The notes under the pieces were generated by a model that made no database searches, was not told where the DNA came from, and saw only the letters and a program-made list of their open reading frames with translations. The translations under genes and the position numbers were made by a program. From the NCBI GenBank assembly GCA_966112835.1, contig CBHWEI010000001.1:1-49904 (forward strand): a stretch of 49,904 nucleotides of DNA, in the 5' to 3' direction. Shown here piece by piece: positions 5,092 through 33,025 of this stretch. Position 1 is the first letter of the stretch. Each line of letters starts with the position of its first letter. This DNA comes from an uncultured Acidimicrobiaceae bacterium (lineage in GTDB: Bacteria > Actinomycetota > Acidimicrobiia > Acidimicrobiales > Ilumatobacteraceae).

Positions 5092-5210
5092 CGATCCCCG
5101 GGACCTCGTTGACGTACCTCCGCGCCGCGATGGGCCGGACGACCCCTTCTCCCGTCGAGGGGGTCGGCCGGCCCGCCGCAGGGTTTCATCGCGGCGGAAT
5201 CCGCGCCACG

Positions 5211-6587
5211 ATGGTGCGGATGCTGCGGGAGAAGCACACTCCACCGAGGGTCGAAGGCGACCCTGACGGCGCGTTCGTCGACCTCAGCGCGGACAACCCC
5301 ACGTCGACCCTGAACCGCGTGGTGGTCATCGTGTGGGTGCTCAGCCTGCTGGTGGTCATCGGCGTGGGCGTCGCCCACGTGGCCATCATGCGCCGCGAAC
5401 TGCGCGACCACGAGATCCAGCGTGCCGTGGAGGACGTGCAGGACCGTGTCGACCTGGTGCTCGAGCACTCGGTCCCCCAGGCCCTCATCGACGGCGACCC
5501 GGCCGCCATCGAGGAGTTCGACGCCATCATCCGCGAGCACATCGTGCGACCCACCACCGCCGGCCTTGCCCTGTGGAGCCCCGACGGCCGCATCCTCTAC
5601 GCACTCGACCCGCAGTTCACCGGCACACAGCACAGCCTGCCCGTCGGCGCGAAGGAAGCACTCGACACCAATCGGGTGGTCGCCGGTCTGCGCGACAGCG
5701 GTGCGGCCGACGCCGACGCCGAAGCCGGCTGGGCGGCGAGCTCGGCCATCGAGGTGTACGCACCGTTCGCCAACGACCAGGGCGACGAGTTCGTGTGGGA
5801 GGTGGGACTGCGCCGCGACCGCGTCACCGAGCAGTCGAACCGCCTGGTGCTCACCGTCGCGCTGCTCACCGCGTTGGGCACCGCGCTGCTGCTCACCATC
5901 CAGGGCCTGCTGGCCCGCAACCTTGTCCGGCGCCACGACCGCGAGCAGTCGTACCGCCGTTGGATCACCCAGCGCGTCAGCGAGGTGGCCACCGTGGAAC
6001 GGCGGCAGATCGCTGCGGACCTGCACGACGGCGTGGTGCAGGACCTCACCGGCATCGCACTGGACCTGGAAGTGCCCATCGGCAAGGGCAAGGTGGCGCC
6101 ACCGCTCGACCCGCAGGAACGATCGTCGCTGGCCACCCGCATCCGCGCCGCGGTGACGGTGCTCCGCGGCCAGGCCGCCGAGCTGCACCCCGTGGCGTCG
6201 TCGGCCATGGAGGTCGAGACCAGCCTGCGCGACATGCTGGGCCGGGTGCCGGCGCACATCGCCACGTCGCTCGTCGTCGAGCCGGGCACCGAGGTGGCGC
6301 CCGGCTACCGCTGGTTGGTCTTCCGTGTGGCGCAGGAAGCGCTGCGCAACGTCGTGCAGCACTCGCGTGCCACCCGAGTGGTCGTGGCCATGCGTCGCGG
6401 CGAGTCGGGTACAGTCATCACGATCGACGACGACGGGGTCGGCTTCTCACCCGAGAAAGATCCCATCGAACCCGGCCACATGGGTCTGTCGCTCCTCAGC
6501 GACATGGCCTCTGCGGCGGGAGGTGTCGTGTTCATCCGTTCGGCCCCCGGGAAGGGTACGACGATCCGCCTGGAGGTTCCGGAATGA
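5211..6587 (+). CDS. Membrane sensor histidine kinase (HisKA_3 / NarL-partner type)
   Basis: Lies in ORF 5109-6587. I prefer the ATG at 5211 (MVRMLREK), but the start is uncertain. Two TM segments (VVVIVWVLSLLVVIGVGVAHVAIM and LVLTVALLTALGTALLLTIQGLL). H-box IAADLHDGVVQDL and an HATPase tail (DDDGVGF, GLSLL, GKGTTIRLEVP). The stop overlaps the next start (ATGA). Confidence 0.8.
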   Translation: MVRMLREKHTPPRVEGDPDGAFVDLSADNPTSTLNRVVVIVWVLSLLVVIGVGVAHVAIMRRELRDHEIQRAVEDVQDRVDLVLEHSVPQALIDGDPAAIEEFDAIIREHIVRPTTAGLALWSPDGRILYALDPQFTGTQHSLPVGAKEALDTNRVVAGLRDSGAADADAEAGWAASSAIEVYAPFANDQGDEFVWEVGLRRDRVTEQSNRLVLTVALLTALGTALLLTIQGLLARNLVRRHDREQSYRRWITQRVSEVATVERRQIAADLHDGVVQDLTGIALDLEVPIGKGKVAPPLDPQERSSLATRIRAAVTVLRGQAAELHPVASSAMEVETSLRDMLGRVPAHIATSLVVEPGTEVAPGYRWLVFRVAQEALRNVVQHSRATRVVVAMRRGESGTVITIDDDGVGFSPEKDPIEPGHMGLSLLSDMASAAGGVVFIRSAPGKGTTIRLEVPE

Positions 6588-7240
6588 TTCGAGTCATCGT
6601 GGTGGACGACCACCCTGTGGTCTGCGCCGGCATGGCCCGCCTCATCTCGAACGAGGACGACATCGAGGTGGTCGCGACGGCGCTCGACGGCGAGAAGGCC
6701 GTCGCGCTCGACGCCGAACTGATGCCCGACGTGGTGCTGATGGACCTGTCCATGCAGCCGGTCGACGGGGTCGAGGCCACCCGCCGCATCAAGTCGGGTC
6801 GCCCCGGCGCGAACGTGCTCATCCTGGCCGCGACGGCCGATCCGCCGCACGTGCTGTCGGCCATCGACGCCGGCGCGCTGGGCTTCCTGCTGAAGGACGG
6901 CGATCCGGCGCTCATCTCCGAGGGCATCCGCTCGGCGGCACGCGGTGAGTCGCCGCTCGACCCCCGCCTGGCCGCCACCCTGGTGCGCGACCGGCATGCC
7001 CGCCGCGCCGGTGTGAAGCTCACCGACCGCGAGGCCGAGGTGCTGAAGCTGGCCGCCCGCGGCCTGTTGAACAAGCAGATCGCCCGCGAGTTGGGCATCG
7101 GCGAGAAGACCGTGAAGGCGCACCTGGGCCGCGTCTACGAGCGCATCGGCGTCACCAACCGTGCCGATGCCGTGGCGTGGGCGGTCGAGGCCGACCTGGC
7201 CGACCCGGCGGTGGCCGCGGTGGCCAACGAGCCCGACTGA
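6584..7240 (+). CDS. NarL/LuxR-family response regulator
   Basis: Receiver domain begins MIRVIVVDDHPVV and includes VVLMDLSM. C-terminal LuxR HTH: LTDREAEVLKLAARGLLNKQIARELGIGEKTVKAHLGRVYERIGV. The ATG at 6584 overlaps the kinase TGA. Confidence 0.9.
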   Translation: MIRVIVVDDHPVVCAGMARLISNEDDIEVVATALDGEKAVALDAELMPDVVLMDLSMQPVDGVEATRRIKSGRPGANVLILAATADPPHVLSAIDAGALGFLLKDGDPALISEGIRSAARGESPLDPRLAATLVRDRHARRAGVKLTDREAEVLKLAARGLLNKQIARELGIGEKTVKAHLGRVYERIGVTNRADAVAWAVEADLADPAVAAVANEPD

Positions 7241-11879: not shown

Positions 11880-12632
11880 TCAGAAGGCGAGGGGGTCGAG
11901 GGGGCCGGCGGGGCCGGCGGCGCGGATGAACCACTCGTAGCCGTACACGCCCTCGAAGGTCTCGGCAGGCATCGTGAGGGCCTCGGACCTGGGTGGGATC
12001 TGGCTCACGTGGGCGGCCATCGCCGCCCGCTTCACGGCCGCCTGGGCACGCACGTCGACCGTGACCGACACCTCGACGGTGGGCACGCCCAGCGGTGCGG
12101 CATTGGTGCGCACCTCCATGCCCAGCAGCGACTGGACGGCGTGACCCACCAGGTGCGTCTCGACGAAGTGCAGGTACTCGCGGTCCACCGTCGCCTCGTA
12201 CACCGTGGGCGTGCCGGCCAGCGCGGCGGCCGCCCGGCCCACGCGGTGCACCGCCAGGTGGTCGGGGTGGCCGTAGATGCCACCCACGTCGTAGACCACC
12301 AGCGCGGTGGCCCGCTCGTCGGCCAGCAGGTCGGCCAGGCGGCGGGCGACGGCGGCATGGTCGGCCTGCCAGAACGAGTCGGCACCTGCCCGATCGGCGT
12401 CCATGCCCGAGTCGGCGAAGCCCAGGAACTCCAGACGTTCGACGCCCAGCAGTGCGCACGCCGCGTGGGCCTCGGCCACGCGGGCGCGGGCCATGGGGCT
12501 GTCGGGACGCACGTCGCCGTTGGTGGCCAGCACCACCACGGTCCGCTCGCCGGCGTCGTGCAGACGGCGCAACGTGCCGCCGGTGAAGATCGACTCGTCG
12601 TCGGGGTGGGCGTGCAGGAACACCGTCGTCAT
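11880..12632 (-). CDS. PIG-L/LmbE-family deacetylase
   Basis: N-terminal MTTVFLHAHPDDESIFTGG contains the AHPDDE metal-site motif. The downstream HPDH string also fits. 250 aa. Confidence 0.8.
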   Translation of the reverse strand: MTTVFLHAHPDDESIFTGGTLRRLHDAGERTVVVLATNGDVRPDSPMARARVAEAHAACALLGVERLEFLGFADSGMDADRAGADSFWQADHAAVARRLADLLADERATALVVYDVGGIYGHPDHLAVHRVGRAAAALAGTPTVYEATVDREYLHFVETHLVGHAVQSLLGMEVRTNAAPLGVPTVEVSVTVDVRAQAAVKRAAMAAHVSQIPPRSEALTMPAETFEGVYGYEWFIRAAGPAGPLDPLAF

Positions 12633-12656
12633 GCGGCCGGCTCCACGCTCACGAGC

Positions 12657-13052
12657 TCACTTGAGGCTGATGATGTAGTCGACGATCTGCTGCACATCGG
12701 CGTCGGGCACCCGGTTCACGGGCATCTTCACCTTCGTGCCCTGCGGGATGTCGGCGTTGGGGTCCATGATCGAGCGCACCAGGTAGTCGCGGTCGACGGT
12801 GACGGTCGAGCCGTCCTCCAGCGTCACCTGCGACTCGTACAGGCCCTTCCACGTGGGGCCCACGCCCGGGCGGCCGTCGGTGCTGTGGCAGGCCATGCAG
12901 CCGTAGTCCTGGGCCAGTCCCTTGCCGGGCAGCGCCTGCGGGTCCTTGTTCACGCCACAGGCGGCCAGCGCCACCACGGCCACGGTGAGGGCCGCAGCGG
13001 GTGCCAGGGCGAGCAAGCGGCGAGAAATCGTCGGGTGGGCCACGGCGTTCAT
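12657..13052 (-). CDS. Small class I c-type cytochrome, lipoprotein-anchored
   Basis: ATG at 13052. Signal peptide plus lipobox (VVALAAC) and a single CxxCH haem motif (CMACH). 131 aa. The remaining upstream part of the 453-aa ORF is antisense to hrpA and was rejected. Confidence 0.8.
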   Translation of the reverse strand: MNAVAHPTISRRLLALAPAAALTVAVVALAACGVNKDPQALPGKGLAQDYGCMACHSTDGRPGVGPTWKGLYESQVTLEDGSTVTVDRDYLVRSIMDPNADIPQGTKVKMPVNRVPDADVQQIVDYIISLK

Positions 13053-13058
13053 GGTGCC

Positions 13059-16000
13059 ATGCTGGCAGACGCCATGGAGCATTCCGCCCTTCCCATCGAC
13101 GCGCACCGCGACGAGTTGCTCGCCGCGATCCGCGACCACCAGGTGGTCATCGTCGCGGGCGAGACGGGGTCGGGCAAGAGCACGCAGCTGCCCCAGCTGT
13201 GCCTGCGAGCGGGGCGGGGCGACGGCCGGCTCATCGGCCACACCCAACCCCGGCGCGTGGCAGCGCGCACCATCGCCGAACGCATCGCCGACGAGTTGGG
13301 CACCGAGCTGGGCACCACGGTGGGCTACACCGTGCGCTTCACCGACAAGGTGGGCCCCGACACGCGCATCAAGGTGATGACCGACGGCATCCTGCTGGCC
13401 GAGATCCAGCGTGACCGGCTGCTGCGCCGGTACGACACGCTCATCATCGACGAGGCCCACGAGCGCAGCCTGAACATCGACTTCCTGCTCGGCTACCTGA
13501 AGCAGCTGCTCCCCCAGCGGCCCGACCTGAAGCTCATCGTCACGTCGGCCACCATCGACACCCAGCGCTTCGCCGAGCACTTCGGCACGCCGGGCAAGCC
13601 CGCGCCGGTCATCGAGGTGAGCGGCCGCAGCTATCCCGTCGAGATGCGCTACCGCCCCTACGGCGAAACCGGCGACGACGGCGTGGTCGACGACCGCGAC
13701 CAGGTGCAGGCCGTGCTCGACGCGGTCGACGAGCTGGCCGACGTGGGCGACGGCGACGTGCTCGTCTTCCTGAGCGGCGAACGCGAGATCCACGACATCG
13801 CCGACGCCCTGCGCCGGCGCACGCAGGAGCGCAGCGACCGGCTGGAGGTGCTCCCCCTCTACGCCCGGCTGTCGGCGGTCGAGCAGCACCGCATCTTCCA
13901 GCCGCACCGGCAGCGGCGCGTGGTGCTCAGCACCAACGTCGCCGAGACCTCGCTCACCGTGCCGGGTGTGCGCTACGTGGTCGACGCCGGCACGGCGCGC
14001 ATCAGCCGCTACAGCCACCGGTTGAAGGTGCAGCGGCTGCCCATCGAGGCCGTGTCACAGGCGTCGGCCAACCAGCGTGCCGGCCGCTGCGGTCGCGTGG
14101 CGCCGGGCATCTGCATCCGCCTCTACGACGAGGCCGACTTCGAGTCGCGCGACGAGTTCACCGAGCCCGAGATCCTACGCACCAACCTGGCCTCGGTCAT
14201 CCTGCAGATGACCGCACTCGGGCTGGGCGACGTCGACGCGTTCCCGTTTCTCGACCCGCCCGATCCGCGTTCCGTCCGCGACGGCTACGCGCTGTTGGAA
14301 GAGCTCGGTGCCATCGACGGCGTCCGCCTGACGCACCTGGGCCGCCGCCTGGCCCGCCTGCCCATCGACCCGCGCCTGGGACGGATGGTGCTCGAGGCCG
14401 AGCGCCATGGCTGCGTGCGCGAGGTGCTCGTGGTGACCGCGGCACTCAGCATCCAGGACCCGCGCGAGCGCCCGGCCGACAAGCGCGGCGAGGCCGACGA
14501 ACTGCACCAGCGATTCGTGGTGCCGGGCAGCGACTTCCTGACCTACGTGAAGCTGTGGGACCACCTGCGCGAGCAGCAGCAGGCGCTGGGTAGCAGCCAG
14601 TTCCGCAAGCTGTGCCGCAACGAGTTCCTGAACTACCTGCGGGTGCGCGAGTGGCAGGACCTGTTCAGCCAGTTGCGTCAGGTGGCGGGCCAGCTCGGGC
14701 TGCGGCCCGGCACCGAGGCCGGCCACCCGGACCGCGTCCACCAGGCGCTGCTGGCCGGTCTGCTCAGCCACCTGGGCATGCGCGACGACACCGGAGGCAA
14801 CAGCGGCAGTGGCGGCGGTGGCAGCGGCCCGACGCACCGCGGTCGCGAATACCGCGGCGCGCACGGCAGCCGCTTCGCCATCGGCCGCGAGAGCGCGCTG
14901 GCCAAGAAGAGCCCCAAGTGGGTGGTCGCCGCCGAGCTCGTCGAGACCAATCGGCTGTGGGGCCGCGTGGTGGCCGAGGTGCAGCCCGAGTGGGCCGAGC
15001 GGCTGGGCGCGCACCTGGTGAAGCGTTCGTACGGCGACGCGTACTGGGACGAACGTCGCGGTGGTGCCGTGTGCCGCGAGCAGGTCACCCTGTACGGGCT
15101 GCCGATCGTGAACCGCACCATCGGCTACGACCGCGTCGACAAGGCTGCCGCCCGCGAGTACTTCATCCGCTGCGCGCTGGTGGAGGGCGACTGGACCACC
15201 CGCCACACGTTCTGGGAACGCAACCGGCGATTCCTCGACGACCTGGCCGGCATGGGCGAACGAGTGCGCCGCGTCGACCTGTTCGACCACGAGGCGGTGT
15301 ACGCGTTCTACGAGCGACGCGTGGGGCCCGACGTGGTGACCACACGGCACTTCGACCGCTGGTGGAAGGACGCCAAGTCCGCCGACCCCGACCTGCTCAC
15401 CATGCGCCTCGAGCACTTCGTCAGCGGCTCGGGAGTGCTCAGCGCGCACGACTTCCCCGGCACGTGGGTGCAGGACGAGTTGGCGCTGCCGTTGACCTAC
15501 CGCTTCGACCCGGGTGCCCCCGGCGACGGCGTCACCGTGCACGTGCCGTTGGCCGCGCTGAACCAGGTGAGTGCCGACGGGTTCGACTGGCAGGTGCCGG
15601 GCTTGCGCAACGACCTGGTGGATGCACTGATGCGCTCGCTGCCGAAGGAGCACCGCCGCGAACTGGTGCCCATGGGCGAGGTGGTCGCCAAGGTGACGGC
15701 CGCGTTGGAGGTGAGCGACCGGCCCCTGGCCCACGCGCTGGCCAGTACGGTGCGCGACGTCACGGGCGTCAGCGTCCCCGCGAGCGCCTTCGACCTGTCG
15801 AAGGTGCCCACGCACCTGCGCGTCAACTTCGTCGTCGACGACGAGCACGGCAACCCGTTGGCCGGCGGCAAGGACCTCGACGTGCTGCGGGCCGAGCTGG
15901 CGTCGAAGGTGCGCGCCGCCATCGCCCGTACGGCGCCCATCGAAGAGCGCAAGGGCATCACCACCTGGGACATCGGCGACCTGCCCGAGTCGGTCGAGTC

Positions 16001-22640: not shown

Positions 22641-22713
22641 GCCGCCGGTCGGATGCCGAGAATGCACGAGGCCCCGCCGGAGATCCGGACGGGGCCACGG
22701 TGACGACCTGGAG

Positions 22714-22786
22714 TGGAGCTGAGGGGAATTGAACCCCTGACCTCTTCATTGCGAACGAAGCGCTCTGCCAACTGAGCTACAGCCCC
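22714..22786 (-). tRNA. tRNA-Ala (anticodon CGC)
   Basis: 73 nt: GGGGCTGTAGCTCAGTTGGCAGAGCGCTTCGTTCGCAATGAAGAGGTCAGGGGTTCAATTCCCCTCAGCTCCA. It folds into a cloverleaf with a 7-bp acceptor stem that includes the G3:U70 Ala identity pair. The anticodon loop is TTCGCAA and the T-loop is GGTTCAATTCC. CCA is not genome-encoded. Confidence 0.9.
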
Positions 22787-23480: not shown

Positions 23481-23996
23481 TTACGGTTCTACTACGTTCG
23501 TAACGGCCGACGCAATGTTAGCGGGTCGACGGTACGTACCGGACCGCCCCCCGGTTTTCTCCCACAGGGCCACCTCACCGATGACCATGCCGCGATCGGC
23601 CGACTTGCACATGTCGTAGATGGTCAGGGCGGCCACGCTGCACGCATGGAGGGCCTCCATCTCGACACCGGTTCGGTCGACGGTGTCGACCTGCACCTCG
23701 ATCTCGATGTGGTCGTCGCCGATCTCGAAGTTCACCGAGACCGAGCCGACCAGCAGCGGATGGCACAGCGGGATCATGTCGCTGGTGCGTTTCGCTGCCT
23801 GGATGGCGGCCACCCGGGCGACGGCGAGCACGTCACCCTTCTTCACTTCCCGGTTGGCGATGGCCGCCGTGGTCTCGGGTTGCATGAACACCTTGCCGCG
23901 GGCGACCGCTCGCCGATGGGTGGGGTCCTTGGGGGTCACGTCGACCATGCGGGCCCGACCCATGGGATCGAGGTGCGTGAAAGTGAGGTCACTCAT
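23481..23996 (-). CDS. moaC: Cyclic pyranopterin monophosphate synthase MoaC
   Basis: Strings LTHLDPMGRARMVDV, KGDVLAVARVAAIQAAKRTSDMIPLCHPL and EMEALHACSVAALTIYDMCK. It has a ~17-aa C-terminal tail encoded in a locally AT-richer stretch. Confidence 0.9.
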   Translation of the reverse strand: MSDLTFTHLDPMGRARMVDVTPKDPTHRRAVARGKVFMQPETTAAIANREVKKGDVLAVARVAAIQAAKRTSDMIPLCHPLLVGSVSVNFEIGDDHIEIEVQVDTVDRTGVEMEALHACSVAALTIYDMCKSADRGMVIGEVALWEKTGGRSGTYRRPANIASAVTNVVEP

Positions 23997-24091: not shown

Positions 24092-25999
24092 TCAGTACGG
24101 GACGGTGCAGCCCTGGATGGTGGCGCCCGTGACGGTCGTGCCGCTCGCGGTGAGCGACACGCGGCACGTCATCCACGACGTGGCCCCGACCTTGGCGACG
24201 ACCGTGACGTCACCGTCGTTCACGCTGCCGTTGTCCACCGCGACGATGGGGTAGGTGGAGGTCGAGCCCGTGGACTTCACCTTCAGGACGCGCACCACCA
24301 TGCCCAGCGTCGTGAACCCGGCCGAACTGTTCGGCAGTTGGACATTGATCTTCGCCAGCGGGAGGTACACCTCGCCGTCGAACCAGAACGTGTTGTTGTT
24401 GCCGTTCGAGCTGAGGAAGTCGCAGCCCGACGACGCCAGGACGACACACCCCGACTGGGCCTTCACGGTGGGGCCCTGCACGCCTGTGTAGCTGAGCGCC
24501 ACGCCGTCGACGTTCACGGTGCGAGTGCTGCCGCTGTTCAGGGTGGTGATCGTCAGATTCACCTTGAAGCCGGCAGTGAGGGGCTTGGTGCACGTCGGCG
24601 CGAGCGTCACCTTGCTGAGCGCCACCGTCAGCTTCCCTGGCGTGCCCGTCGTGCACAGCGTCGTACCTGCACTGTCGACCACCGTCACCGAGACGGTGTC
24701 GTTGGCGACGGGGCTCGAGGCCGTGACGTCGACCTTCAGCGGTGAGACCACGAACGCGGGGAGAGCGTTCGCGCCCGTGATGTTCGTGAACACCAGGCTG
24801 TTCGTCGTCTTGTTCTTCGCCACGGAGTAGGTGGCCACCTTGGTGTCGACCGACTTCGCGTTGGCGGGGTTCGTCCAGGTGGTGCCCGTCGGGTTGTCAC
24901 CCACGACGAAGGTGTCGCTGTACGTCTTCGACAGGGTCGTCGTCGCGCCGAAGATGGGGAGTCGCACCGACTTGCCGAGCGACGGTTGGTTCACCGAGAG
25001 GCCGCACACTTCCAGGGTCGGCGAGCTGCCGGACAGCTTCACCGTGGCGGTTCCTCCGAAGACGAGCAACGCGCCGTTCCCGGCAGCTCCGCCAGGGACA
25101 CACGCCTTGGAGAAGTCGGTGGAGCTGGTGAAGCCGCTCACCAGCTTGCCGGCGATCGTGCGTTGCTTGATGGTCCAGTCGAACGAGTCGAAGTAGTGCA
25201 CACCGGGCAGGAAGTTGGTGATGCTGCAGCTCCCGACCGCGGCGTCGATCGCCGATTGGGACGCCCAGGTTCCCGGCTGCAGCGACGCCACGCCGGTCTT
25301 CGTGTCGCAGGTCCCGGTCCCCGCTGCCGGGGCCTCGTCGATGCCGGGCACGTAGCCCGGGTCGGTCGCCGGCGGGCTCGCGACCGCGCAGGACGTGAAC
25401 GACGCGCCGTCGACGGTGACGTTCACACCCTTGCAGCCGTACCGCGCCTTCACGGTCCCGCCGTTGACGACCAGGTTGTCGCCCACGATGTCGGAGTTCG
25501 CGGAGACGTTGCCGTTCACCTGCAACGTCCCCGTGATGTCCAGTCCTGCTTCGCCGTTGCGCTTGCCGTCGTCCTCGGCCTTGCCCGTCGCCAACGTCAG
25601 CAGCCCCCACGCGGAGCCCCCGCCCTTCGGGGTGAGCGACGTGCCCTGCGGGCACACCTGGGTGGTCACCTTGTCGCCGCGCACGGTACCGAAGTCGCGC
25701 ACGGGTGCGCAGCTGGGGTTCGTGCCCGCGTTGCCCTCGGAGGGGTTGTTCACGATGTACTCGACGGCCGCCTTCATGGCCGCGTCGGCGGCGTAGAGCT
25801 TGTCGCGGGCCGGGGTGTACGCGTTCGACTGGGCACGCAGGGTCGCCGAGGCGTAGCCCAGCCCCGCCGCCATGGCCAGGCCGATCACGGTCACGAACAC
25901 GATGGCCATGATGAGCGCCGAGCCCTGGTCGGCGCGGCGGGTGTCGCCCGGGGCCCGATCGTCCTGGGGAAGTTCCGGGAGGTCGTGCTGCCGGCTCAT
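24092..25999 (-). CDS. Large PilX/GspK-like minor-pilin-type protein (635 aa) with a Thr/Ser/Gly/Val-rich, Cys-containing extracellular region
   Basis: The ATG at 25999 overlaps the upstream stop (ATGA). The N-terminal segment DQGSALIMAIVFVTVIGLAMAAGLGYASATL resembles PilX_N / TadG-like hydrophobic N-termini and lacks Glu5. The rest looks beta-rich, with multiple Cys. Confidence 0.6.
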   Translation of the reverse strand: MSRQHDLPELPQDDRAPGDTRRADQGSALIMAIVFVTVIGLAMAAGLGYASATLRAQSNAYTPARDKLYAADAAMKAAVEYIVNNPSEGNAGTNPSCAPVRDFGTVRGDKVTTQVCPQGTSLTPKGGGSAWGLLTLATGKAEDDGKRNGEAGLDITGTLQVNGNVSANSDIVGDNLVVNGGTVKARYGCKGVNVTVDGASFTSCAVASPPATDPGYVPGIDEAPAAGTGTCDTKTGVASLQPGTWASQSAIDAAVGSCSITNFLPGVHYFDSFDWTIKQRTIAGKLVSGFTSSTDFSKACVPGGAAGNGALLVFGGTATVKLSGSSPTLEVCGLSVNQPSLGKSVRLPIFGATTTLSKTYSDTFVVGDNPTGTTWTNPANAKSVDTKVATYSVAKNKTTNSLVFTNITGANALPAFVVSPLKVDVTASSPVANDTVSVTVVDSAGTTLCTTGTPGKLTVALSKVTLAPTCTKPLTAGFKVNLTITTLNSGSTRTVNVDGVALSYTGVQGPTVKAQSGCVVLASSGCDFLSSNGNNNTFWFDGEVYLPLAKINVQLPNSSAGFTTLGMVVRVLKVKSTGSTSTYPIVAVDNGSVNDGDVTVVAKVGATSWMTCRVSLTASGTTVTGATIQGCTVPY

Positions 26000-26547
26000 G
26001 AGGTCGCTCCTCGACGGGTGATGTTCAGCGTCCAGCTCTCGGCGGTCACGTCGCCCTTGCCCGCCGCGGTGAACGTGACCGAGATCTTCGCCGCCGTGCA
26101 CGAGGCCGCGCAGGTGCCCGGAGTGAACGCACTGATGTTGGTGGCGACCACGTTCGAACTGGTCTGCGTGCCGCCCGTGCACACCTTGCGGGTGAGGTTC
26201 GTGCCGCTCAACGACCACGCGACCACCACGTCGCGGGTGGCCTTCGTGGCGTCGCTGCGCGACAGGAACTTCAGCGTGGCGGTGCCGCACGTGGCGTCGG
26301 TGCTGTTCACCAGCACAGGCCCCTCGGCGGAGTAGATGTCGCCGGTGAGCGAGCGCGTGACCGCCATCTCGGTCATGCTCTGGTCCAGACGGGTGCTGTT
26401 GTTGTTCGTGGTCTTGATGCCCATGTACAGGGCGCCACCCACGACGGTGCCCACCAGACCGAGCAGCACCACCGAGATGATGAGCTCGACCAGGGTCACG
26501 CCGGCGTCACGGCGGGCGTCGAGCCGGGTGCCGGCGCGCGCGTTCAT
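25996..26547 (-). CDS. Prepilin-type (pseudo)pilin, 183 aa
   Basis: Leader MNARAGTRLDARRDAG followed by VTLVELIISVVLLGLVG, a class III signal with Glu at +5. The ATG at 26547 overlaps the upstream stop (ATGA). Confidence 0.7.
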   Translation of the reverse strand: MNARAGTRLDARRDAGVTLVELIISVVLLGLVGTVVGGALYMGIKTTNNNSTRLDQSMTEMAVTRSLTGDIYSAEGPVLVNSTDATCGTATLKFLSRSDATKATRDVVVAWSLSGTNLTRKVCTGGTQTSSNVVATNISAFTPGTCAASCTAAKISVTFTAAGKGDVTAESWTLNITRRGATS

Positions 26548-26948
26548 CGTGACTTCCCGAGGACCAGCGTGCCGAAGTCGCCACGCGAGTTGCTGAGCTT
26601 GATGGTGATCTGCTGCAGGCCGAGGTCCGTCGTGCACGTCGACCCGAAGCCGGCGGGCAGCTTGCCGTCCCAGTACGAGAGCGTGACGGTCGTGGTGTAG
26701 CCCGTGGGCTTCGTCGCCGCGCTGTAACTGGTGGGCGTCGCGCAGTCGACGTACTTCTGATCGAGGAGCCGCTCCGCGTAGTTGCGGATCTCGGTGTCGA
26801 TCTGCGCGTTGGCGCGCTGGGTCGCCTGGATCTTGAAGAACAGACCCAGGCCACCGAACACCGCGCCGAACGCCACCGCCATGAGGGTGATGGTCACCAG
26901 CAGCTCGATGAGCGTGTAGCCCTGATCGTGGCTACGTCGAGCGTCCAT
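26544..26948 (-). CDS. Prepilin-type (pseudo)pilin, 134 aa
   Basis: Leader MDARRSHDQG followed by YTLIELLVTITLMAVAFG (Glu at +5). Two Cys in the C-terminal half. A GGAGGGGGAG Shine-Dalgarno lies inside the pilC 3' end. Confidence 0.75.
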   Translation of the reverse strand: MDARRSHDQGYTLIELLVTITLMAVAFGAVFGGLGLFFKIQATQRANAQIDTEIRNYAERLLDQKYVDCATPTSYSAATKPTGYTTTVTLSYWDGKLPAGFGSTCTTDLGLQQITIKLSNSRGDFGTLVLGKSR

Positions 26949-26950
26949 GA

Positions 26951-28162
26951 CTACTTCACTCCCCCTCCGAGTGAGCCGTACATGGCCTGCACCAGCGAGA
27001 TGGCGACGAAGCCGACGACCACGCCGACGATGATGATGATCGCCGGCTCGAAATACGTGGTGAGCCGCTTCAGTTTGTACTCCAGCTCGCGGCCGTAGAA
27101 GTTGGCCGCGTTCTCGAGCTGTTCGGCGAGGGTGCCCGATGCCTCGCCCACGGCGATCATCTGCAGCGCCGCGTCGGGGAACAGGTCCACGCTCGCCAGC
27201 GGTTCGGCCAGGCCTTCGCCGGCCAGCACCGCTTCCTGTACGGGAATGAGCCGCTCCTCGAACACCAGGTTGTCGGCGCTCTGCACCGCCGCGGTCATCG
27301 CGTCGGCCACCGGCACGCCGGCCTGCCACAGGGTGGACAGGATGCGGCAGACGCGTTCGACGCTGGCGTACAGCGCGATCTCGCCGATGAGCGGGATCTT
27401 CAGGATCATCTTGTCGCGCATGTAGCGACCCTTCGCCGACCGCTTCAGCCACTGGAGGAAGCCGACGAAGGCCCCGATGGCGATGACGTACAGCCACCAG
27501 TAGTTCGCCGAGAAATCGGCGAAGTTGATCATCAGCTGGGTGGTGAACGGCAGCTCGGTGCCGAGCGACTTGAACAGGTCGACGAACTTCGGCAGCACGA
27601 AGACGGTGAGGATGATGACCGACACCAACGACATGCCGATGATGACCATCGGGTACGCCATCGCCGACTTCACCCGCGCCTTGGCCTCGAGCTCGCGCTC
27701 CATGTAGCCGGCCAGCTGTGCCAGCGCGTCGTCGAGACGACCGGTGAGGCTGGCGGACCGCACGACGCCCACGTAGTAGCGCGGCAGCACCTTCTGGTGC
27801 TCGGCGAGCGCGTCCTCGAAGGGCATGCCCTCACGCACGTCGTCGCGCATCTGGTGGAGCATGTCCGCGAGCGTCGGGTTCGGGGTGTTCTTGGCGATGA
27901 GGTCGAGCCCGTCGATGATGCTCAGACCGGCACCGAGGAACGCCGCCATCTGGTTCGTGAAGTGGAGGATCTCCATCGGCTTGACGCGCTGCTTCTTCAG
28001 CGTCAACTCGCGGCGCAGCAACGGCTCCTTGAGCGTGATGCTCTGCACGTCGAGGTTGGCGAGCAGCAGCTTCTTGCGGGCATCGGACTCGTCGAACGCC
28101 TCGATGTACCGCTTGTCGGTCGCGCCGTGCACGTCGACGGCCACGTACTGGAACCTGGACAT
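26951..28162 (-). CDS. pilC: Type IV pilus / T2SS platform protein (PilC/GspF family)
   Basis: 403 aa with two GspF-type repeats and three TM segments (e.g. AMAYPMVIIGMSLVSVIILTVFVLP and YFEPAIIIIVGVVVGFVAISLV). The ATG at 28162 shares one base with the pilB TGA. Confidence 0.9.
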   Translation of the reverse strand: MSRFQYVAVDVHGATDKRYIEAFDESDARKKLLLANLDVQSITLKEPLLRRELTLKKQRVKPMEILHFTNQMAAFLGAGLSIIDGLDLIAKNTPNPTLADMLHQMRDDVREGMPFEDALAEHQKVLPRYYVGVVRSASLTGRLDDALAQLAGYMERELEAKARVKSAMAYPMVIIGMSLVSVIILTVFVLPKFVDLFKSLGTELPFTTQLMINFADFSANYWWLYVIAIGAFVGFLQWLKRSAKGRYMRDKMILKIPLIGEIALYASVERVCRILSTLWQAGVPVADAMTAAVQSADNLVFEERLIPVQEAVLAGEGLAEPLASVDLFPDAALQMIAVGEASGTLAEQLENAANFYGRELEYKLKRLTTYFEPAIIIIVGVVVGFVAISLVQAMYGSLGGGVK

Positions 28163-29979
28163 CAGATCACCACCACCGTTCGGAGGACTTCGGTCAGCGT
28201 GGTCGTGCCGGCCAGCGCGAGGTCGACGGCACAGCGGGCCATGGTCCGCATGCCTTCCTGCTCGGCGGCGCGACGCACGTCGGTCTGGCTGGCATGGTCG
28301 ACCATGAGACGACGGATGGTGTCGTTCACGGCCAGAACCTCGTACACACCGACTCGTTCGAAGAAGCCGGTGTCGCGGCAGAAGTTGCAGCCGCGGCCCT
28401 TCATGAACTTCGCATCGGAGGGGAGGTCGCCGACGACCTTCTCGAGGAACGCCATCTCCTCCACCGCCGGCTGGTACTGCTCGGAGCAGCGCGGGCAGTT
28501 GCGGCGGACCAGTCGCTGACCGACCACACCGGTGAGCGACGAGGCGAGCAGGAAGGGCTCGATGCCCATGTCGAGGAAGCGGTGCAGCGCGGCCGCGGCG
28601 TCGGTGGCGTGCAGCGACGACATGACGAAGTGGCCGGTGAGCGCGGCCTGCACGGCGATGCGGGCGGTCTCGACGTCGCGGATCTCGCCCACCAGGATGG
28701 TGTCGGGGTCCTGTCGCAGCAGCGCACGCAGGCCGGTGGCGAACGTCAGGCCGGCCGCCTCGTGGATCTGGATCTGGCTGATGCTGGGGATGACGTACTC
28801 CACCGGGTCCTCGATGGTGGCCACCTTGCGGCTCTCGTCGTTGACGGCCGACAGGGTGGCGTACAGCGTGGTGGTCTTGCCGGAACCGGTCGGGCCGGCG
28901 CACACCACCAGGCCGAACGGCAGGCGGATGAGGTCGCGGTAGCTGGCCTCGGCCGCCTCGGGCATGCCCAGGCGCGAGAGCTCGTACAGGCTGCGTCGCT
29001 TGTCGAGCAGTCGCATGACCACCATCTCGCCGAACACGGTCGGCGACGTGGCCACGCGGATGTCGATCTCGCGGCCGAGCGTCTCGGTGGTGAAGTTGCC
29101 GTCCTGCGGGCGGCGGCGCTCGACGATGTTCAGGTTGGCCATCACCTTGATGCGGGACAGCAGCGGCTGCCCCATGCTGATCGGCAGGGTCATCACTTCG
29201 CGGAGCGCGCCGTCGGTGCGCAGCCGCACGCGGACGCACTCGTCGGACGGCTCGATGTGCACGTCGCTGGCACGCTCGCGGGTGGCCTGCTCGAGGATGA
29301 GGTTGATGACACGCACCACCGGCGCGTTCTCGTCGACCATGTTGTTGTACGTCGGTGCGATGGCCGTGGACTCGCGCTTGCGCTGCTCGGCGCGCTCTTC
29401 GAACACGCGCAGTGCCTCGTCCATCTCGCCCACCTTCACGTGGACGGCGGAGATCATCTCCAGGATGTCCAGACCGGCGGCCACCTGCAGGCGCACCGGA
29501 GCGCTGAGGATGGTGATGAGTTCCTGTTGCAGTTCCGACGCGTACGGGTCGGCGACGGCGACGACGATGCGCTCGCCGTCGCGGCGCACCGGCACCGCGA
29601 CGAGACGCTTGGCGTCGCTCTCGGACAACAACTGAGCGACGTCTCGGTCGACGTTCTCGTGGGCCAGGTCGACGAGTTCGAGGCCCGACTGCTCGGCGAG
29701 CGCCTCCGCGAGTTCACGCTCGGTGAGCAGACCCAGGCTGACGAGCGTCGCGCCCAGCCGCTGACCGTGTGTGCTCTGCGTCAGCAGTGCGCTCCGCAAC
29801 TGCTCCGAGTTCACCAGTCCACGGGCGGCCAGCAGGTCGCCCAACTTCTGCGGTTCGCCCGGCTTGGTGCCCGGGCGTGCACCGGTGTTGACCGGCCCCG
29901 CCTCGCCGCTGTACGGCTTCACTTTCCCGCCCCGCCGTTGCGGCTGGGTCGTCACGGTGCTCTCGGTGTCCCTGCTCAC
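28162..29979 (-). CDS. pilB: Type IV pilus / T2SS assembly ATPase (PilB/GspE family) with an N-terminal MshEN-type domain
   Basis: Walker A GPTGSGKTTTLYA, Walker B region ILVGEIRD and a tetracysteine CPRC...CNFC. The N-terminal domain carries tandem RLGxxL..G..L..L..Q motifs. I prefer the GTG at 29979, which is preceded by AGAAGG, but the ATG at 30039 is possible. Confidence 0.9.
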   Translation of the reverse strand: MSRDTESTVTTQPQRRGGKVKPYSGEAGPVNTGARPGTKPGEPQKLGDLLAARGLVNSEQLRSALLTQSTHGQRLGATLVSLGLLTERELAEALAEQSGLELVDLAHENVDRDVAQLLSESDAKRLVAVPVRRDGERIVVAVADPYASELQQELITILSAPVRLQVAAGLDILEMISAVHVKVGEMDEALRVFEERAEQRKRESTAIAPTYNNMVDENAPVVRVINLILEQATRERASDVHIEPSDECVRVRLRTDGALREVMTLPISMGQPLLSRIKVMANLNIVERRRPQDGNFTTETLGREIDIRVATSPTVFGEMVVMRLLDKRRSLYELSRLGMPEAAEASYRDLIRLPFGLVVCAGPTGSGKTTTLYATLSAVNDESRKVATIEDPVEYVIPSISQIQIHEAAGLTFATGLRALLRQDPDTILVGEIRDVETARIAVQAALTGHFVMSSLHATDAAAALHRFLDMGIEPFLLASSLTGVVGQRLVRRNCPRCSEQYQPAVEEMAFLEKVVGDLPSDAKFMKGRGCNFCRDTGFFERVGVYEVLAVNDTIRRLMVDHASQTDVRRAAEQEGMRTMARCAVDLALAGTTTLTEVLRTVVVI

Positions 29980-30126
29980 TCGGACCTTCTTTCGATGCTG
30001 CCGCCGCACCTGGTGCGGCCTGGATCTACATCGGCTCACCTACAGACGATCTTGAGGGACTGTTGAGCAATCGAACAGAGTCTCTGGTCATTCCCGGCCT
30101 GGGGCGGAGCACCAGGAACGTCCTTG

Positions 30127-30175
30127 GGGCGCCACGCAGGGCGCCCGGGAACCACGCACGGCGGGATTCCCGCCG
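30127..30175 (-). terminator. Two GC hairpins directly downstream of moaA (candidate terminator separating moaA from the pil operon)
   Basis: The first hairpin is GGGCGCC-ACGCAG-GGCGCCC (30127-30146). The second is CGGCGGGA-T-TCCCGCCG (30159-30175), 8 nt after the moaA stop. There is no U-tract. Confidence 0.35.
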
Positions 30176-30182
30176 GCGAAGC

Positions 30183-31206: not shown

Positions 31207-32439
31207 TCAAACTACCCACAGGAGCATCGTTCGGACAGAGGCGCCCGCCGCGATGCCGTCACCGTCGGGGACGACCGCGATGGCATTGGCCAGCGAGGTG
31301 GCGGCCAGCTGGTGGCTGCCCTGGGCCCCCACCGAGCGGATGTGCACCCGGCCGTCGTCGTGGAACGAGGCGAACACCCGCTGCAGGTGCAGCTTGCCGT
31401 CGGGACGCCGCGACAATCCGTCGTCGGCGATGGCGTCGACCATGGGCCGGTCGGGGTGGGGCAGACCGGCCATCTGGCGGAGCGCGGGGCGGGCCATGAA
31501 CTCGAAGCTCACCAGCGAACTGACCGGGTTGCCCGGCAGGCCGAACACCGGCACCTGGCGGCCGTCGGACGCGGCGAGCAGACCGAACGCGAACGGCTTC
31601 GCCGGGCGGATGGCGATCTGCATCCACTGCATGTCGGCGATGCGCGACAGCACCGCCTTCACCACGTCGTAGTCGCCCATGCTGACGCCACCGCTGGTGA
31701 CGATGGCATCGCACGTGTCGGCCGCCGACCGCAGCACCGCTTCCAGCGCCGCTTCGTCGTCGCGCACGATTCCCAGGTCCACCGCGTCGCAGCCGGCGTC
31801 GCGCACCAGCCCGTGCAACATGGTGCGGTTGCTCTCGCGGATCTGCCCGGGCTGCAGGGGGCCGCCGTCGTCGATCAGTTCGTCGCCGGTGCTGAGCACC
31901 GCCACCCGCACCTGCGGCACCACCGACACCACCGCGGCGTTCACGCTGGCCAGCACCGCGGCGACGGCCGGGGTGACGAGCGTGCCGGCGGAGTACAGCT
32001 CGGTACCCACACGGACGTCGTCGCCGGCGGCACGCACCGCCGCACCGGCGTCGATGGGGCGGAGCACCCGGACGCGGTTCCCGCCGTCGAGGCGCTCGGT
32101 GTCCTCCACCATCACGACCGCATCGGCGCCCGCCGGGATGGGCGCACCCGTCATGATGCGGATTGCCTCGCCGGGGCCGAGCACGCGGTCGGTGTACCCG
32201 CCTGCGGCCACCTCGTCCACCACCGGCAGCTCGACCGGGGCGGACGCCACCGACTCGGCGATGACGGCATACCCGTCGACCGCGCTGTTCGCGAACGGGG
32301 GGACGTCCTCGGCAGCCACGACGGGCGCGGCGAGCACGCAGCCGATGGCCTCACGGAACGGCAGTTCACGCGGCGCGAGCGCCGGGGTGCGCTGCAGGAC
32401 GTGGTCGCGGGCGTCGTCGAGAGGGATCACGGTCGCCAC
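31207..32439 (-). CDS. moeA: Molybdopterin molybdenumtransferase MoeA
   Basis: Strings PPFANSAVDGYAV, RIMTGAPIPAGADAVV and VTSGGVSMGDYD. Start is the GTG at 32439 (alternative 32430). The stop lies 4 nt before the moaA start. Confidence 0.85.
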   Translation of the reverse strand: MATVIPLDDARDHVLQRTPALAPRELPFREAIGCVLAAPVVAAEDVPPFANSAVDGYAVIAESVASAPVELPVVDEVAAGGYTDRVLGPGEAIRIMTGAPIPAGADAVVMVEDTERLDGGNRVRVLRPIDAGAAVRAAGDDVRVGTELYSAGTLVTPAVAAVLASVNAAVVSVVPQVRVAVLSTGDELIDDGGPLQPGQIRESNRTMLHGLVRDAGCDAVDLGIVRDDEAALEAVLRSAADTCDAIVTSGGVSMGDYDVVKAVLSRIADMQWMQIAIRPAKPFAFGLLAASDGRQVPVFGLPGNPVSSLVSFEFMARPALRQMAGLPHPDRPMVDAIADDGLSRRPDGKLHLQRVFASFHDDGRVHIRSVGAQGSHQLAATSLANAIAVVPDGDGIAAGASVRTMLLWVV

Positions 32440-32455
32440 GGTACCGTGGGCACGG

Positions 32456-33025
32456 ATGACCGCATACGCCGCCCTCACCGACGCCCACGGCCCCGACGGC
32501 CACGTCGTGCGCTGGGCGGTGGGCGACGGACCGCATCTCGACACCACCACCATCCGCTGGGAGAACGAGGGCTACACGGTGTCGGGGCGCCTGGACCGCG
32601 AGCAGGTGGAGTACGTGCTGCGGTTGTCGGCCACGTGGCAGGTGCGCCAGTTCATCCTGTTCCGCGACCTGGAGGAGCCCGACCTGTGGCTCGCCACCGA
32701 CGGCGCCGGCCGCTGGGGCGAGATGAACGGCGCGCACCGCACCGAGCTCGACGGCTGCTACGACGTGCACCTGGCCTGTGCGGCGTTCACCGTGTCGTTG
32801 CCCATCCGGCGGCTGCCGCTGCTCGACGGGCACACCGCCGAGATCCCCGTGGTGGTCGTCGACACCGAGACGCTCGAGGTGCGTGCAGTCACGCACCGCT
32901 ACACCCGGGTGGATGCGCTGCACTGGCGCATCGAGACCGACGACCCTGCCACCACCGCCACGGTCGAGCTCGACGCGCACGGCCTGGTGCGGGACTACCC
33001 CGGCGGGTTCCGCCGGCTGTCGTAG
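32456..33025 (+). CDS. Conserved hypothetical protein, probably the 'putative glycolipid-binding' DUF family
   Basis: ATG at 32456, 189 aa. The string FTVSLPIRRLPL and the overall layout resemble that family as I remember it. This is not verifiable here. Confidence 0.5.
   Translation: MTAYAALTDAHGPDGHVVRWAVGDGPHLDTTTIRWENEGYTVSGRLDREQVEYVLRLSATWQVRQFILFRDLEEPDLWLATDGAGRWGEMNGAHRTELDGCYDVHLACAAFTVSLPIRRLPLLDGHTAEIPVVVVDTETLEVRAVTHRYTRVDALHWRIETDDPATTATVELDAHGLVRDYPGGFRRLS

Follow-up and report, generated by a model that had tools for sequence, protein, structure and literature searches.

The stretch of DNA analysed here, referred to as the window, is the whole of contig CBHWEI010000001.1 (49,904 nt; assembly GCA_966112835.1) from an uncultured Acidimicrobiaceae bacterium. 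Its minus strand carries five genes in the order pilB-pilC-pil1-pil2-'big' (24092-29979), which encode an ATPase, a membrane platform, two short prepilins and a large pilin-like protein. The reading preferred here, judged somewhat better than an even bet, is that this operon is a reduced cassette derived from type IVa pili (T4aP) and gives rise to an adhesive pilus controlled by cyclic dimeric guanosine monophosphate (c-di-GMP). Other parts of the genome would have to provide prepilin peptidase and probably also a major pilin and PilT. An initial annotation of this DNA held that no function could be chosen from the sequence. The choice is not wholly open, because the MshEN motif of the ATPase, a predicted sigma-28-like promoter, and modules in 'big' that resemble beta-helices and carbohydrate-binding modules (CBMs) point to regulated adhesion.

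PilB-type pili are known from few actinobacterial genera, and the actinobacterial pili that have been studied are almost all of the Tad/Flp kind. A very compact PilB-type machine that lacks PilMNO recurs in many uncultured Actinomycetota. It provides a test case for how little machinery assembles a type IV filament in a monoderm, and for how tip complexes carry adhesins. No description of the compact cassette or of the 'big' family was found in the text of the open-access literature.

Assembly machinery, operon and predicted promoter

Judged by its profile matches, the ATPase is a full-length PilB of the T4aP type, and the platform protein PilC is T4aP-like over its full length. PilB matches Pfam T2SSE with E=1.2e-120 (403 bits) and MshEN with E=1.4e-13 (51 bits). 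Among the NCBIfam models TIGR02538 (PilB) scores best, at 528.5 bits against a cut-off of 675.65, and GspE reaches 517.9 against 630. The ComGA model gives 254 bits (cut-off 300) and covers residues 228-492 only; the TadA-family model gives 43 bits (cut-off 373). The closest relatives of solved structure are PilF of Thermus thermophilus (444 bits) and the PilB proteins of Geobacter and Myxococcus (~415 bits), matched over residues 40-603. MshEN is defined as a tandem 24-residue c-di-GMP-binding motif with a 5-residue spacer (PMC5013675). PilB has two such 24-residue motifs separated by 5 residues, and scores 59.6 bits with NF053729, the NCBIfam model for an MshE-related c-di-GMP-binding domain, against a cut-off of 38. 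The strict motif is matched by the second copy; in the first, R is replaced by K and position 7 is A, deviations (K1 and A7) that the relaxed motif permits (PMC5013675). The N-terminus of PilB carries an intact tandem MshEN motif and is a predicted c-di-GMP receptor.

PilC matches Pfam T2SSF in two stretches (E=3.6e-54) and the PilC protein of Myxococcus xanthus (3jc8) over its full length (E=5.8e-65). Its NCBIfam scores all lie below the cut-offs: 306 bits against 424 for GspF, 271 for PilC and 130 against 240 for ComGB. The platform is a single two-domain PilC, whereas Tad systems have two paralogues, TadB and TadC. The generic type IV filament model of Denise et al. (2019) asks for an ATPase, a platform and a class III prepilin, and all three are present.

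A filament of the PilB/PilC kind, as distinct from Tad, had been proposed from the outset. The low TadA-family score, the single PilC and the lack of an Flp_Fap pilin in the window uphold this distinction. The list of components first reported as missing from these 50 kb is likewise sound. A Pfam scan of ~40 other open reading frames (ORFs) of the window returned no Peptidase_A24, PilM/N/O, PilT-type ATPase, secretin or Flp pilin (Flp_Fap). Pfam scans of window ORFs also returned no GspL, GspM or GspC and no comEA/comEC-like domains. In a six-frame scan of the window, class III signal motifs were found only in the three pilin-like genes of the operon; hence no major pilin gene is seen.

On recomputing the ORFs, the five genes prove to be coupled on the minus strand with exactly the junctions first described: a 1-nt overlap at 28162 (pilB/pilC), a 2-nt gap (pilC/pil1) and one ATGA overlap each at pil1/pil2 and pil2/'big'. 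One boundary has to be moved. The end of pilB had been placed at 30039, which corresponds to the longest possible ORF. In an alignment of the moaA-pilB spacer, a Shine-Dalgarno sequence followed by (G/A)TGAGCAGGGA is kept in seven orthologous loci, so the GTG at 29979 is the likely start. Against three relatives, pilB and pilC have ratios of non-synonymous to synonymous substitution (dN/dS) of 0.11-0.34 and the three pilin-like genes of 0.30-0.58; all five genes are therefore maintained by purifying selection. Simple scans for sigma-70 promoters and terminators gave nothing useful within the operon. The features discussed in the text are collected in table 1.

Table 1. Coordinates of the pilus operon, its motifs and its immediate neighbours in the window.
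Feature	Position	Strand	Description
pilB	28162..29979	-	extension ATPase, 605 aa; MshEN N-terminal domain and T2SSE core
pilC	26951..28162	-	inner-membrane platform, 403 aa
pil1	26544..26948	-	prepilin, 134 aa; leader MDARRSHDQG, then YTLIE
pil2	25996..26547	-	prepilin, 183 aa; 16-aa leader, then VTLVE
'big'	24092..25999	-	pilin-like protein, 635 aa, lacking Glu5; 26-aa leader ending in DQG, then SALIMAIVF
MshEN motif	29689..29847	-	PilB residues 45-97: KLGDLLAARGLVNSEQLRSALLTQ-STHGQ-RLGATLVSLGLLTERELAEALAEQ
sigma-28/WhiG-like motif	30028..30055	-	TCAAGATCGTCTGTAGGTGAGCCGATGT; begins 76 nt upstream of pilB start
hairpins	30095..30182	-	directly after moaA stop; CGGCGGG-AAU-CCCGCCG and GGGCGCC-N6-GGCGCCC
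moaC	23481..23996	-	downstream flank; Pfam MoaC E=1.2e-55
moaA	30183-31202	-	upstream flank; Radical_SAM and Mob_synth_C
moeA	31207-32553	-	upstream flank; MoeA_N, MoCF_biosynth and MoeA_C

The operon appears to have a promoter of its own, predicted to be sigma-28/WhiG-like. Sigma-28 promoters usually have a spacing of 15 nt. The motif in the window reads TCAA-N16-GCCGATGT from 30055 to 30028; the sigma-28/FliA/WhiG consensus is TAAA at -35 and GCCGATAA at -10 (PMC8325347). All seven aligned moaA-pilB spacers (7/7) keep the same footprint, CCTCAAGA, ~14 nt and (G/A)CCGA(N)GA. The pattern T[AC]AA-N15-16-[GA]CCGA-N-[AGT]-[AT], shaped partly on related sequences, has 10 matches in 500 kb from twelve cassette loci; nine of these, where 0.007 would be expected, lie <=300 nt upstream of pilB. 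The motif thus precedes pilB in 9/12 loci. The nine include TCAA-N15-GCCGACTA in L010 (6004-6030) and TAAA-N15-GCCGAGGA in L011 (3575-3601), which come from unrelated neighbourhoods. Between 22000 and 35500, no riboswitch (for c-di-GMP or for molybdenum cofactor, Moco) or other Rfam element was found besides tRNA. Control of this type has precedents within the phylum. A type IV pilus cluster in Rubrobacter is controlled by WhiG, RsiG and c-di-GMP, WhiG-like control operates in Actinoplanes, WhiG-type control of pili is predicted for four further families, and RsiG occurs in 3/4 Acidimicrobiales examined (PMC8325347, PMC12871210). Taken together, the MshEN motif and the predicted promoter suggest that the link between WhiG, c-di-GMP and pili may extend to Acidimicrobiia-like lineages.

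The pilin-like proteins as a putative tip complex

The two short proteins are prepilins, as first described. When all five proteins were checked against Pfam models, as had been proposed, T2SSE, T2SSF and N_methyl were found above cut-off in pilB, pilC, pil1 and pil2. N_methyl scores 29.7 bits for pil1 (cut-off 21.2) and 23.9 bits for pil2; cleavage would fall between G and YTLIE in the former and between G and VTLVE in the latter, and Glu5 is present in both. The best specific match of pil1 is XpsI/GspI (E=3.7e-4, residues 9-71). Its AlphaFold model (predicted local distance difference test, pLDDT, 86) is a pilin 'lollipop' composed of a helix (13-63) and a 3-stranded sheet, and nearly all of the 32 homologues found are 134 aa long. 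The prepilin domain is matched by 10/10 pil2 orthologues, and the C-terminus SWTL.V.RRG(V/A)TS of pil2 is conserved. To GspH, GspJ, ComGF and others, pil2 shows weak matches that depend on the N-terminal helix. Placing pil1 and pil2 among GspH/I/J, PilV/W or ComGD-G with sequence models was attempted and set aside, as it yields only weak matches driven by that helix. In profile searches of PDB sequences, pil1 and pil2 matched through the class III signal and alpha1N only, and none of the three pilin-like proteins has a significant match to any solved pilin past the N-terminal helix.

The cleavage site of 'big' reads DQG followed by SALIM, so the protein is without Glu5. An alignment of 17 sequences has Met at position +5 in 16 and Leu in one (P0013); the N-terminus, 11 Cys and the extreme C-terminus QGCTVP(R/Y) are conserved throughout. 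PilX_N is matched below threshold (E=0.09, 13.2 bits against 25.5) and no Pfam domain is found. PilX_N is matched at E<=0.01 by 4/45 members of the family (best 3e-5). The description of 'big' as a GspK/PilX-style protein without Glu5, made in the initial annotation, is supported by the Met at +5 and by these four relatives. A word-indexed search of 5.8 billion proteins gave 16 relatives. A profile search of 1.84 billion cluster representatives gave 876 at E<=1e-3 and 158 at E<=1e-30, and the family clusters are mostly of 600-700 aa and match over the full length. Thirty cluster look-ups were all metagenomic and labelled 'hypothetical protein' at best, with the exceptions of one 'PilX' label from the Joint Genome Institute (JGI) and one Actinomycetota metagenome-assembled genome (MAG) at NCBI. 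No homologues were found on PLSDB plasmids. No member of the 'big' family has been characterised, and the family lacks a reliable Pfam domain.

The structural model of 'big' (pLDDT 81.2; predicted template modelling score, pTM, 0.66) consists of a 58-residue N-terminal helix (27-84) and a remainder that is all-beta. Foldseek aligns it with the beta-helices of phage tailspikes and depolymerases (E=2e-5, with the low template modelling (TM) scores of a multi-domain query). It also aligns with beta-sandwiches of the CBM4/6/22/35 type and with a Bacteroides surface glycan-binding protein (probability ~1, target TM 0.3-0.5 overall and 0.4-0.5 for the CBM-type sandwiches). We propose that 'big' is a tip subunit of the PilK/GspK/PilX type fused to adhesin modules.

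Across type IV filaments the gene order pilI-pilJ-pilK is nearly invariant. K subunits are without Glu5 and may carry adhesin domains, examples being GspK and CpaL; the K-type GspK and the adhesin-bearing CpaL provide a C-terminal strand in cis (PMC13533445). The three consecutive pilin genes of the operon rise in size (134, 183 and 635 aa), and by order, size and the features of the last gene they probably represent an I-J-K tip set, the I and J assignments being deductions. On this scheme pil1 is proposed as a PilI/GspI-like minor pilin and pil2, from gene order and size only, as a PilJ/GspJ-like one. The trio had been described as a GspH/J/K-style tip set lacking a major pilin. The resemblance to a tip complex stands; the order and sizes fit I-J-K better than H-J-K.

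The mechanism proposed for the c-di-GMP-controlled adhesive pilus is as follows. (i) A sigma factor of the sigma-28/WhiG family would transcribe the five genes from their own promoter. (ii) A PilB hexamer, with c-di-GMP on MshEN, would drive the PilC platform; the domains are present and the activity is presumed. (iii) A prepilin peptidase encoded elsewhere would cleave pil1, pil2 and 'big'. (iv) The I-like pil1, the J-like pil2 and the K-like 'big' would then assemble as a tip-initiation complex. (v) With 'big' on top, the beta-helix and CBM-like modules would be displayed as an adhesin. (vi) The fibre below the tip would be built from a GspG/PilA-like major pilin, which in this lineage would have to be encoded elsewhere or be replaced by pil1. 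(vii) The result would be an adhesive pilus without PilMNO, probably binding glycans or particles.

Several points weigh against this reading. The promoter motif of the window has three mismatches to TAAA/GCCGATAA, and related sequences partly shaped the search pattern. Neither a sigma factor gene nor a gene for a c-di-GMP enzyme lies within the 49.9-kb window. The adhesin role of 'big' is drawn from low-TM fold matches to a multi-domain model. The pil1 model has no significant fold match in the PDB, the best pilin being Thermus TTHA1218 (probability 0.85), and sequence models do not place pil1 or pil2 as I or J. Finally, no major pilin, peptidase or PilT is encoded on the 49.9-kb contig, and their supply in trans is an assumption.

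The cassette in related Actinomycetota

A PilB scan of one genome per species found six loci with PilB proteins 73-94% identical, in MAGs labelled Acidimicrobiaceae, Actinomycetota or Actinomycetes. Identity across the relatives is 87-97% for housekeeping proteins, 54-72% for the short pilins and 47-67% for 'big'; this greater divergence of the pilins and 'big' is the usual pattern of surface proteins. Ten gene neighbourhoods of 'big' relatives share one order: pilB (MshEN and T2SSE), pilC, a pilin of 134-180 aa, a pilin of 166-201 aa and 'big'. With the window included, the cassette was counted at 17 loci of uncultured Actinomycetota, in ~6 different genomic neighbourhoods.

The initial picture of a self-contained minimal five-gene system is not sustained by these relatives, whose cassettes add a GspG/PilA-like pilin and sometimes PilT. 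The extra small pilin (84-182 aa) occurs in 11/17 loci. In six it is 108-120 aa long and lies between the second pilin and 'big' (L002, L003, L007, L008, L009 and L093); in five it is 84-182 aa long and lies just after 'big' (L010, L011, L094, L095 and one contig without DNA). It is absent from the other six (the window, L001, L004, L005, L006 and L092). Its N-terminus is that of a canonical major pilin, for example G followed by FTLIELLVVVAILGILAA in L009, and its best families are GspG, PilA and ComGC. An adjacent short T2SSE ATPase (353-384 aa) is found in four loci; two of these ATPases were tested, and with 444 and 460 bits (cut-off 319) both fall in the PilT/PilU family. Neither Peptidase_A24 nor PilM/N/O appears in the 10 loci with gene tables.

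The composition of these cassettes bears on an alternative in which the operon encodes a pseudopilus like that of type II secretion, pushing folded proteins through the monoderm wall. It draws on the GspE and GspF scores, which nearly equal those of PilB and PilC, on the presence of a GspK-like subunit without Glu5, and on the JGI label of the relatives' small pilin, 'GspG'. We consider it very unlikely. GspE and GspF remain below their cut-offs, and the window has no GspL, GspM, GspC or secretin. A bona fide PilT beside the cassette in relatives fits pili rather than type II secretion, and the cassette has no candidate substrate gene that stays linked to it from one context to the next.

In a neighbour-joining tree of PilB and PilC, the five-gene window, L001 and L004 form a group that is sister to the six-gene L002, L093, L003 and L008. 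The five-gene L006 falls outside both groups, and the six-gene L007 and L009 lie further out. The position of L006 implies that the small pilin was lost at least twice. The operon of the window is a reduced, lineage-specific form of a wider cassette, from which the in-cassette small pilin has been lost. Repeated loss of the in-cassette major pilin while the rest stays under selection offers a handle on the function of the initiation complex itself.

The same losses suggest the main alternative, a self-sufficient short filament consisting of the tip complex, or with pil1 as its repeating subunit, and having no separate major pilin. Such a pseudopilus, built by the five genes alone, would be of a length just sufficient to carry the adhesin across the cell wall. 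The two losses (in the clade of the window, L001, L004 and L005, and in L006) and the absence of the small pilin from L092 are in its favour. In loci that lack the small pilin the remaining genes are intact, coupled and under purifying selection, and among the pilin genes pil1 has the strongest Shine-Dalgarno sequence. A search with the small pilin of L002 gave 14 matches, none of them on contigs of five-gene genomes, including the 2.58-Mb CAWGHJ010000003.1; however, it scored 23 candidates and needs shared 5-residue words, so a divergent pilin would be missed and the result is not evidence of absence. In addition, T4aP major pilin genes are often located away from the machinery genes. The length and conservation of pil1 are unchanged between five- and six-gene lineages, which argues against a change in its role. 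The short filament is regarded as unlikely. A tip-only filament is a rather improbable proposal. Here PilB and PilC would assemble only the initiation complex, or a short pil1 stalk, and push a glycan-binding adhesin through the wall under the control of c-di-GMP. If true, such a machine, devoid of PilMNO and of a fibre subunit, would rank as the smallest type IV filament known to work.

The least probable account of all is that of a decaying remnant, which lost its function with the deletion of the major pilin gene. The locus does lack a small pilin and PilT, unlike its relatives, but the five ORFs are intact and their junctions coupled in the window, L001, L005 and L006. The dN/dS values (0.11-0.58) and the conserved promoter motif, Shine-Dalgarno sequence and start codon also argue against decay. 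The only frameshift, in 'big' of L004 (L004:13966-15833), is probably a sequencing error, because the same assembly also splits galU, a DNA-alkylation-repair gene and moeA.

Three relatives show further variations. L092 has two tandem 'big' paralogues (1574-3439 and 3671-5596; 621 and 641 aa) after two pilin genes and no small major-type pilin. Just upstream of pilB, L009 encodes a second, shorter ATPase with MshEN and T2SSE (L009:4233-5285; 350 aa). On the P0084 contig a PMT-family protein O-mannosyltransferase gene (12557-13990, locus coordinates) directly follows the small pilin gene, a hint of pilin glycosylation in that lineage.

The flanking genes moaC, moaA and moeA are confirmed by Pfam, and the hairpins noted after moaA by folding: the minimum free energy is -50.6 kcal/mol (z = -3.07), and 0/200 shuffles fold as well. 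The two hairpins are GC-rich and have no T-tract, and the simple terminator scan was negative there. They likely mark where the moeA-moaA transcript gives way to the pilus operon. Five of the six loci from the PilB scan have the arrangement moeA-moaA-(cassette)-moaC-hyp-ech-folBK; the sixth, L005, begins inside pilB and shows the downstream half only. In all, nine loci carry the cassette at the moaA-moaC site (the window, L001-L006, L008 and L093), with PilB identity down to 73%. A metagenome scan for MoaC gave 80 loci (MoaC 78-96% identical), 51 of which hold both moaA and moaC. The gap between the two genes is <=110 bp in 29 of these, 0.9-1.2 kb in 18, 1.8-2.8 kb in three and 466 bp in one. 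Neither the cassette nor a 'big' homologue is present in any of them (0/51). The moaA-moaC junction is therefore variable and takes insertions repeatedly; one subclade acquired the cassette there.

The initial annotation had suggested an insertion into the Moco locus, which would not hold if the operon stood between moaC and moaA throughout the order. The 51 related loci without the cassette speak for the insertion, but not for a recent event. The GC content of the cassette is 67.4% against 70.8% in the rest of the window; GC at third codon positions (GC3) is host-like (0.91-0.94), and it is codon positions 1 and 2 that account for the deficit. No direct repeats flank the cassette. Recent horizontal transfer was rejected in view of the host-like GC3 and the lack of flanking repeats. 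These features and the shared position in nine loci indicate that the insertion is old and clade-wide.

Elsewhere, purL precedes and purF follows the cassette in L010 and on one further contig (P0084), and in L095 the cassette follows dxr, a Peptidase_M50 gene and ispG; L007, L009, L011, L092 and L094 represent other contexts. It is repeatedly wedged into conserved rows of housekeeping genes (genes at 1572-3755 and 13774-15234 in L010; 3896-5116 in L095). In five inspected loci of the MoaC scan (L012-L091) with moaA-moaC gaps of 0.9-1.2 kb, the gap holds one gene (as at L013:5065-6027 and L038:2773-3576), either for a secreted protein of ~320-350 aa without a Pfam match or, on the minus strand, for a product of ~267 aa. 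The gene for the secreted protein also occurs upstream of pilB in L006 (L006:8801-9856). A tRNA-Ala (CGC) gene at 22713-22786 (-) lies between an enoyl-CoA hydratase gene and a conserved 187-aa gene beside moaC, two genes from the cassette and not at its border. The window begins within a very large ORF (1-5091 (+); >1696 aa) in which an animal haem peroxidase domain occurs together with HYDIN/VesB-like Ig domains and calcium-binding RTX repeats; its product is probably a secreted peroxidase. It is followed by genes for a histidine kinase and a response regulator of the LuxR type (5109-7240).

Comparison with known systems

The T4aP of monoderms such as Streptococcus sanguinis and Clostridium resemble the cassette in having a PilB-type ATPase, a PilC platform and prepilins with Glu5, and in lacking a secretin. 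PilT is a further shared component, found for the cassette in relatives. The modular minor pilins of S. sanguinis carry a lectin module in PilC and a von Willebrand factor A module in PilB (PMC9934059, PMC8179133). The fusion of a pilin-like subunit to an adhesive module is thus common to both systems, but the adhesin of the cassette is fused to a K-type subunit without Glu5. The cassette also differs from monoderm T4aP in having no PilM/N/O in the 10 tabled loci and no peptidase in the locus, and the window has no major pilin gene. PilMNO and PilT mark the type IVa pili (Tfpa), and the actinobacterial pili studied experimentally are of the Tad type (Pelicic, PMC6916266). In the scheme of Denise et al., some T4aP clades fall in Firmicutes and Actinobacteria, and many actinobacterial systems are classed as 'generic'. 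A study of Acidimicrobiia (UBA5794) gives pilABCEMOTY1 annotations only.

The Com pilus of Bacillota (ComG, a type IVd pilus) is likewise encoded by one compact operon with ATPase, platform and pilins only, its peptidase being encoded elsewhere, and this operon holds the I-J-K homologues ComGE, ComGF and ComGG (PMC13533445). It differs in its short ComGA, compared with a 605-aa PilB with MshEN, and in gene order; the tip subunit of the cassette is a 635-aa protein with adhesin-like modules, and PilT occurs in cassette relatives. The layout had earlier been called ComG-like. As an analogy of layout this holds, but the ATPase is a full-length PilB with MshEN, and ATPase and platform fall below the ComGA and ComGB cut-offs. 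A DNA-uptake pilus, functionally equivalent to the Com pilus of monoderms, is on balance distinctly improbable. The comG-like compactness, with no PilMNO or peptidase in the operon, would suit it, and in Micrococcus luteus, an actinobacterium, DNA is taken up by means of pili (PMC6916266). Against it stand the sub-threshold ComGA and ComGB scores and the PilB-type N-terminal region, which is not found in ComGA. Moreover, comEA/comEC-like domains are absent from the window and from the 10 tabled loci of relatives, and the CBM-like and beta-helix modules modelled in 'big' are not known DNA-binding features.

For the preferred reading, an adhesive pilus under c-di-GMP control, the closest parallels in regulation are the pilus clusters of Rubrobacter and Actinoplanes missouriensis. 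These belong to the same phylum, are PilB-type and have sigma-28-type promoters and a link to c-di-GMP. Their 9 to 13 pil genes are spread over several transcription units, whereas the window has one short operon with a predicted promoter. The mannose-sensitive haemagglutinin (MSHA) system of Vibrio cholerae also has an extension ATPase, MshE, with tandem MshEN motifs, and an adhesive function of the kind proposed for the cassette. A prepilin peptidase is missing from MSH loci, which make use of one from a different system (PMC6668835); the cassette has none in its locus either. MSHA is, however, a large system of diderms; it includes a secretin and numerous Msh-specific genes, none of which occurs in the cassette.

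The tip itself is best compared with GspI-J-K/PilI-J-K, GspK and CpaL. As in these systems, three pilin genes of increasing size follow one another. Like K-type subunits, which provide the last beta-strand in cis, 'big' is without Glu5 and has a large non-pilin insertion and a conserved extreme C-terminus. The insertion of GspK is an alpha-domain; those of 'big' are modelled as a beta-helix and CBM-like modules.

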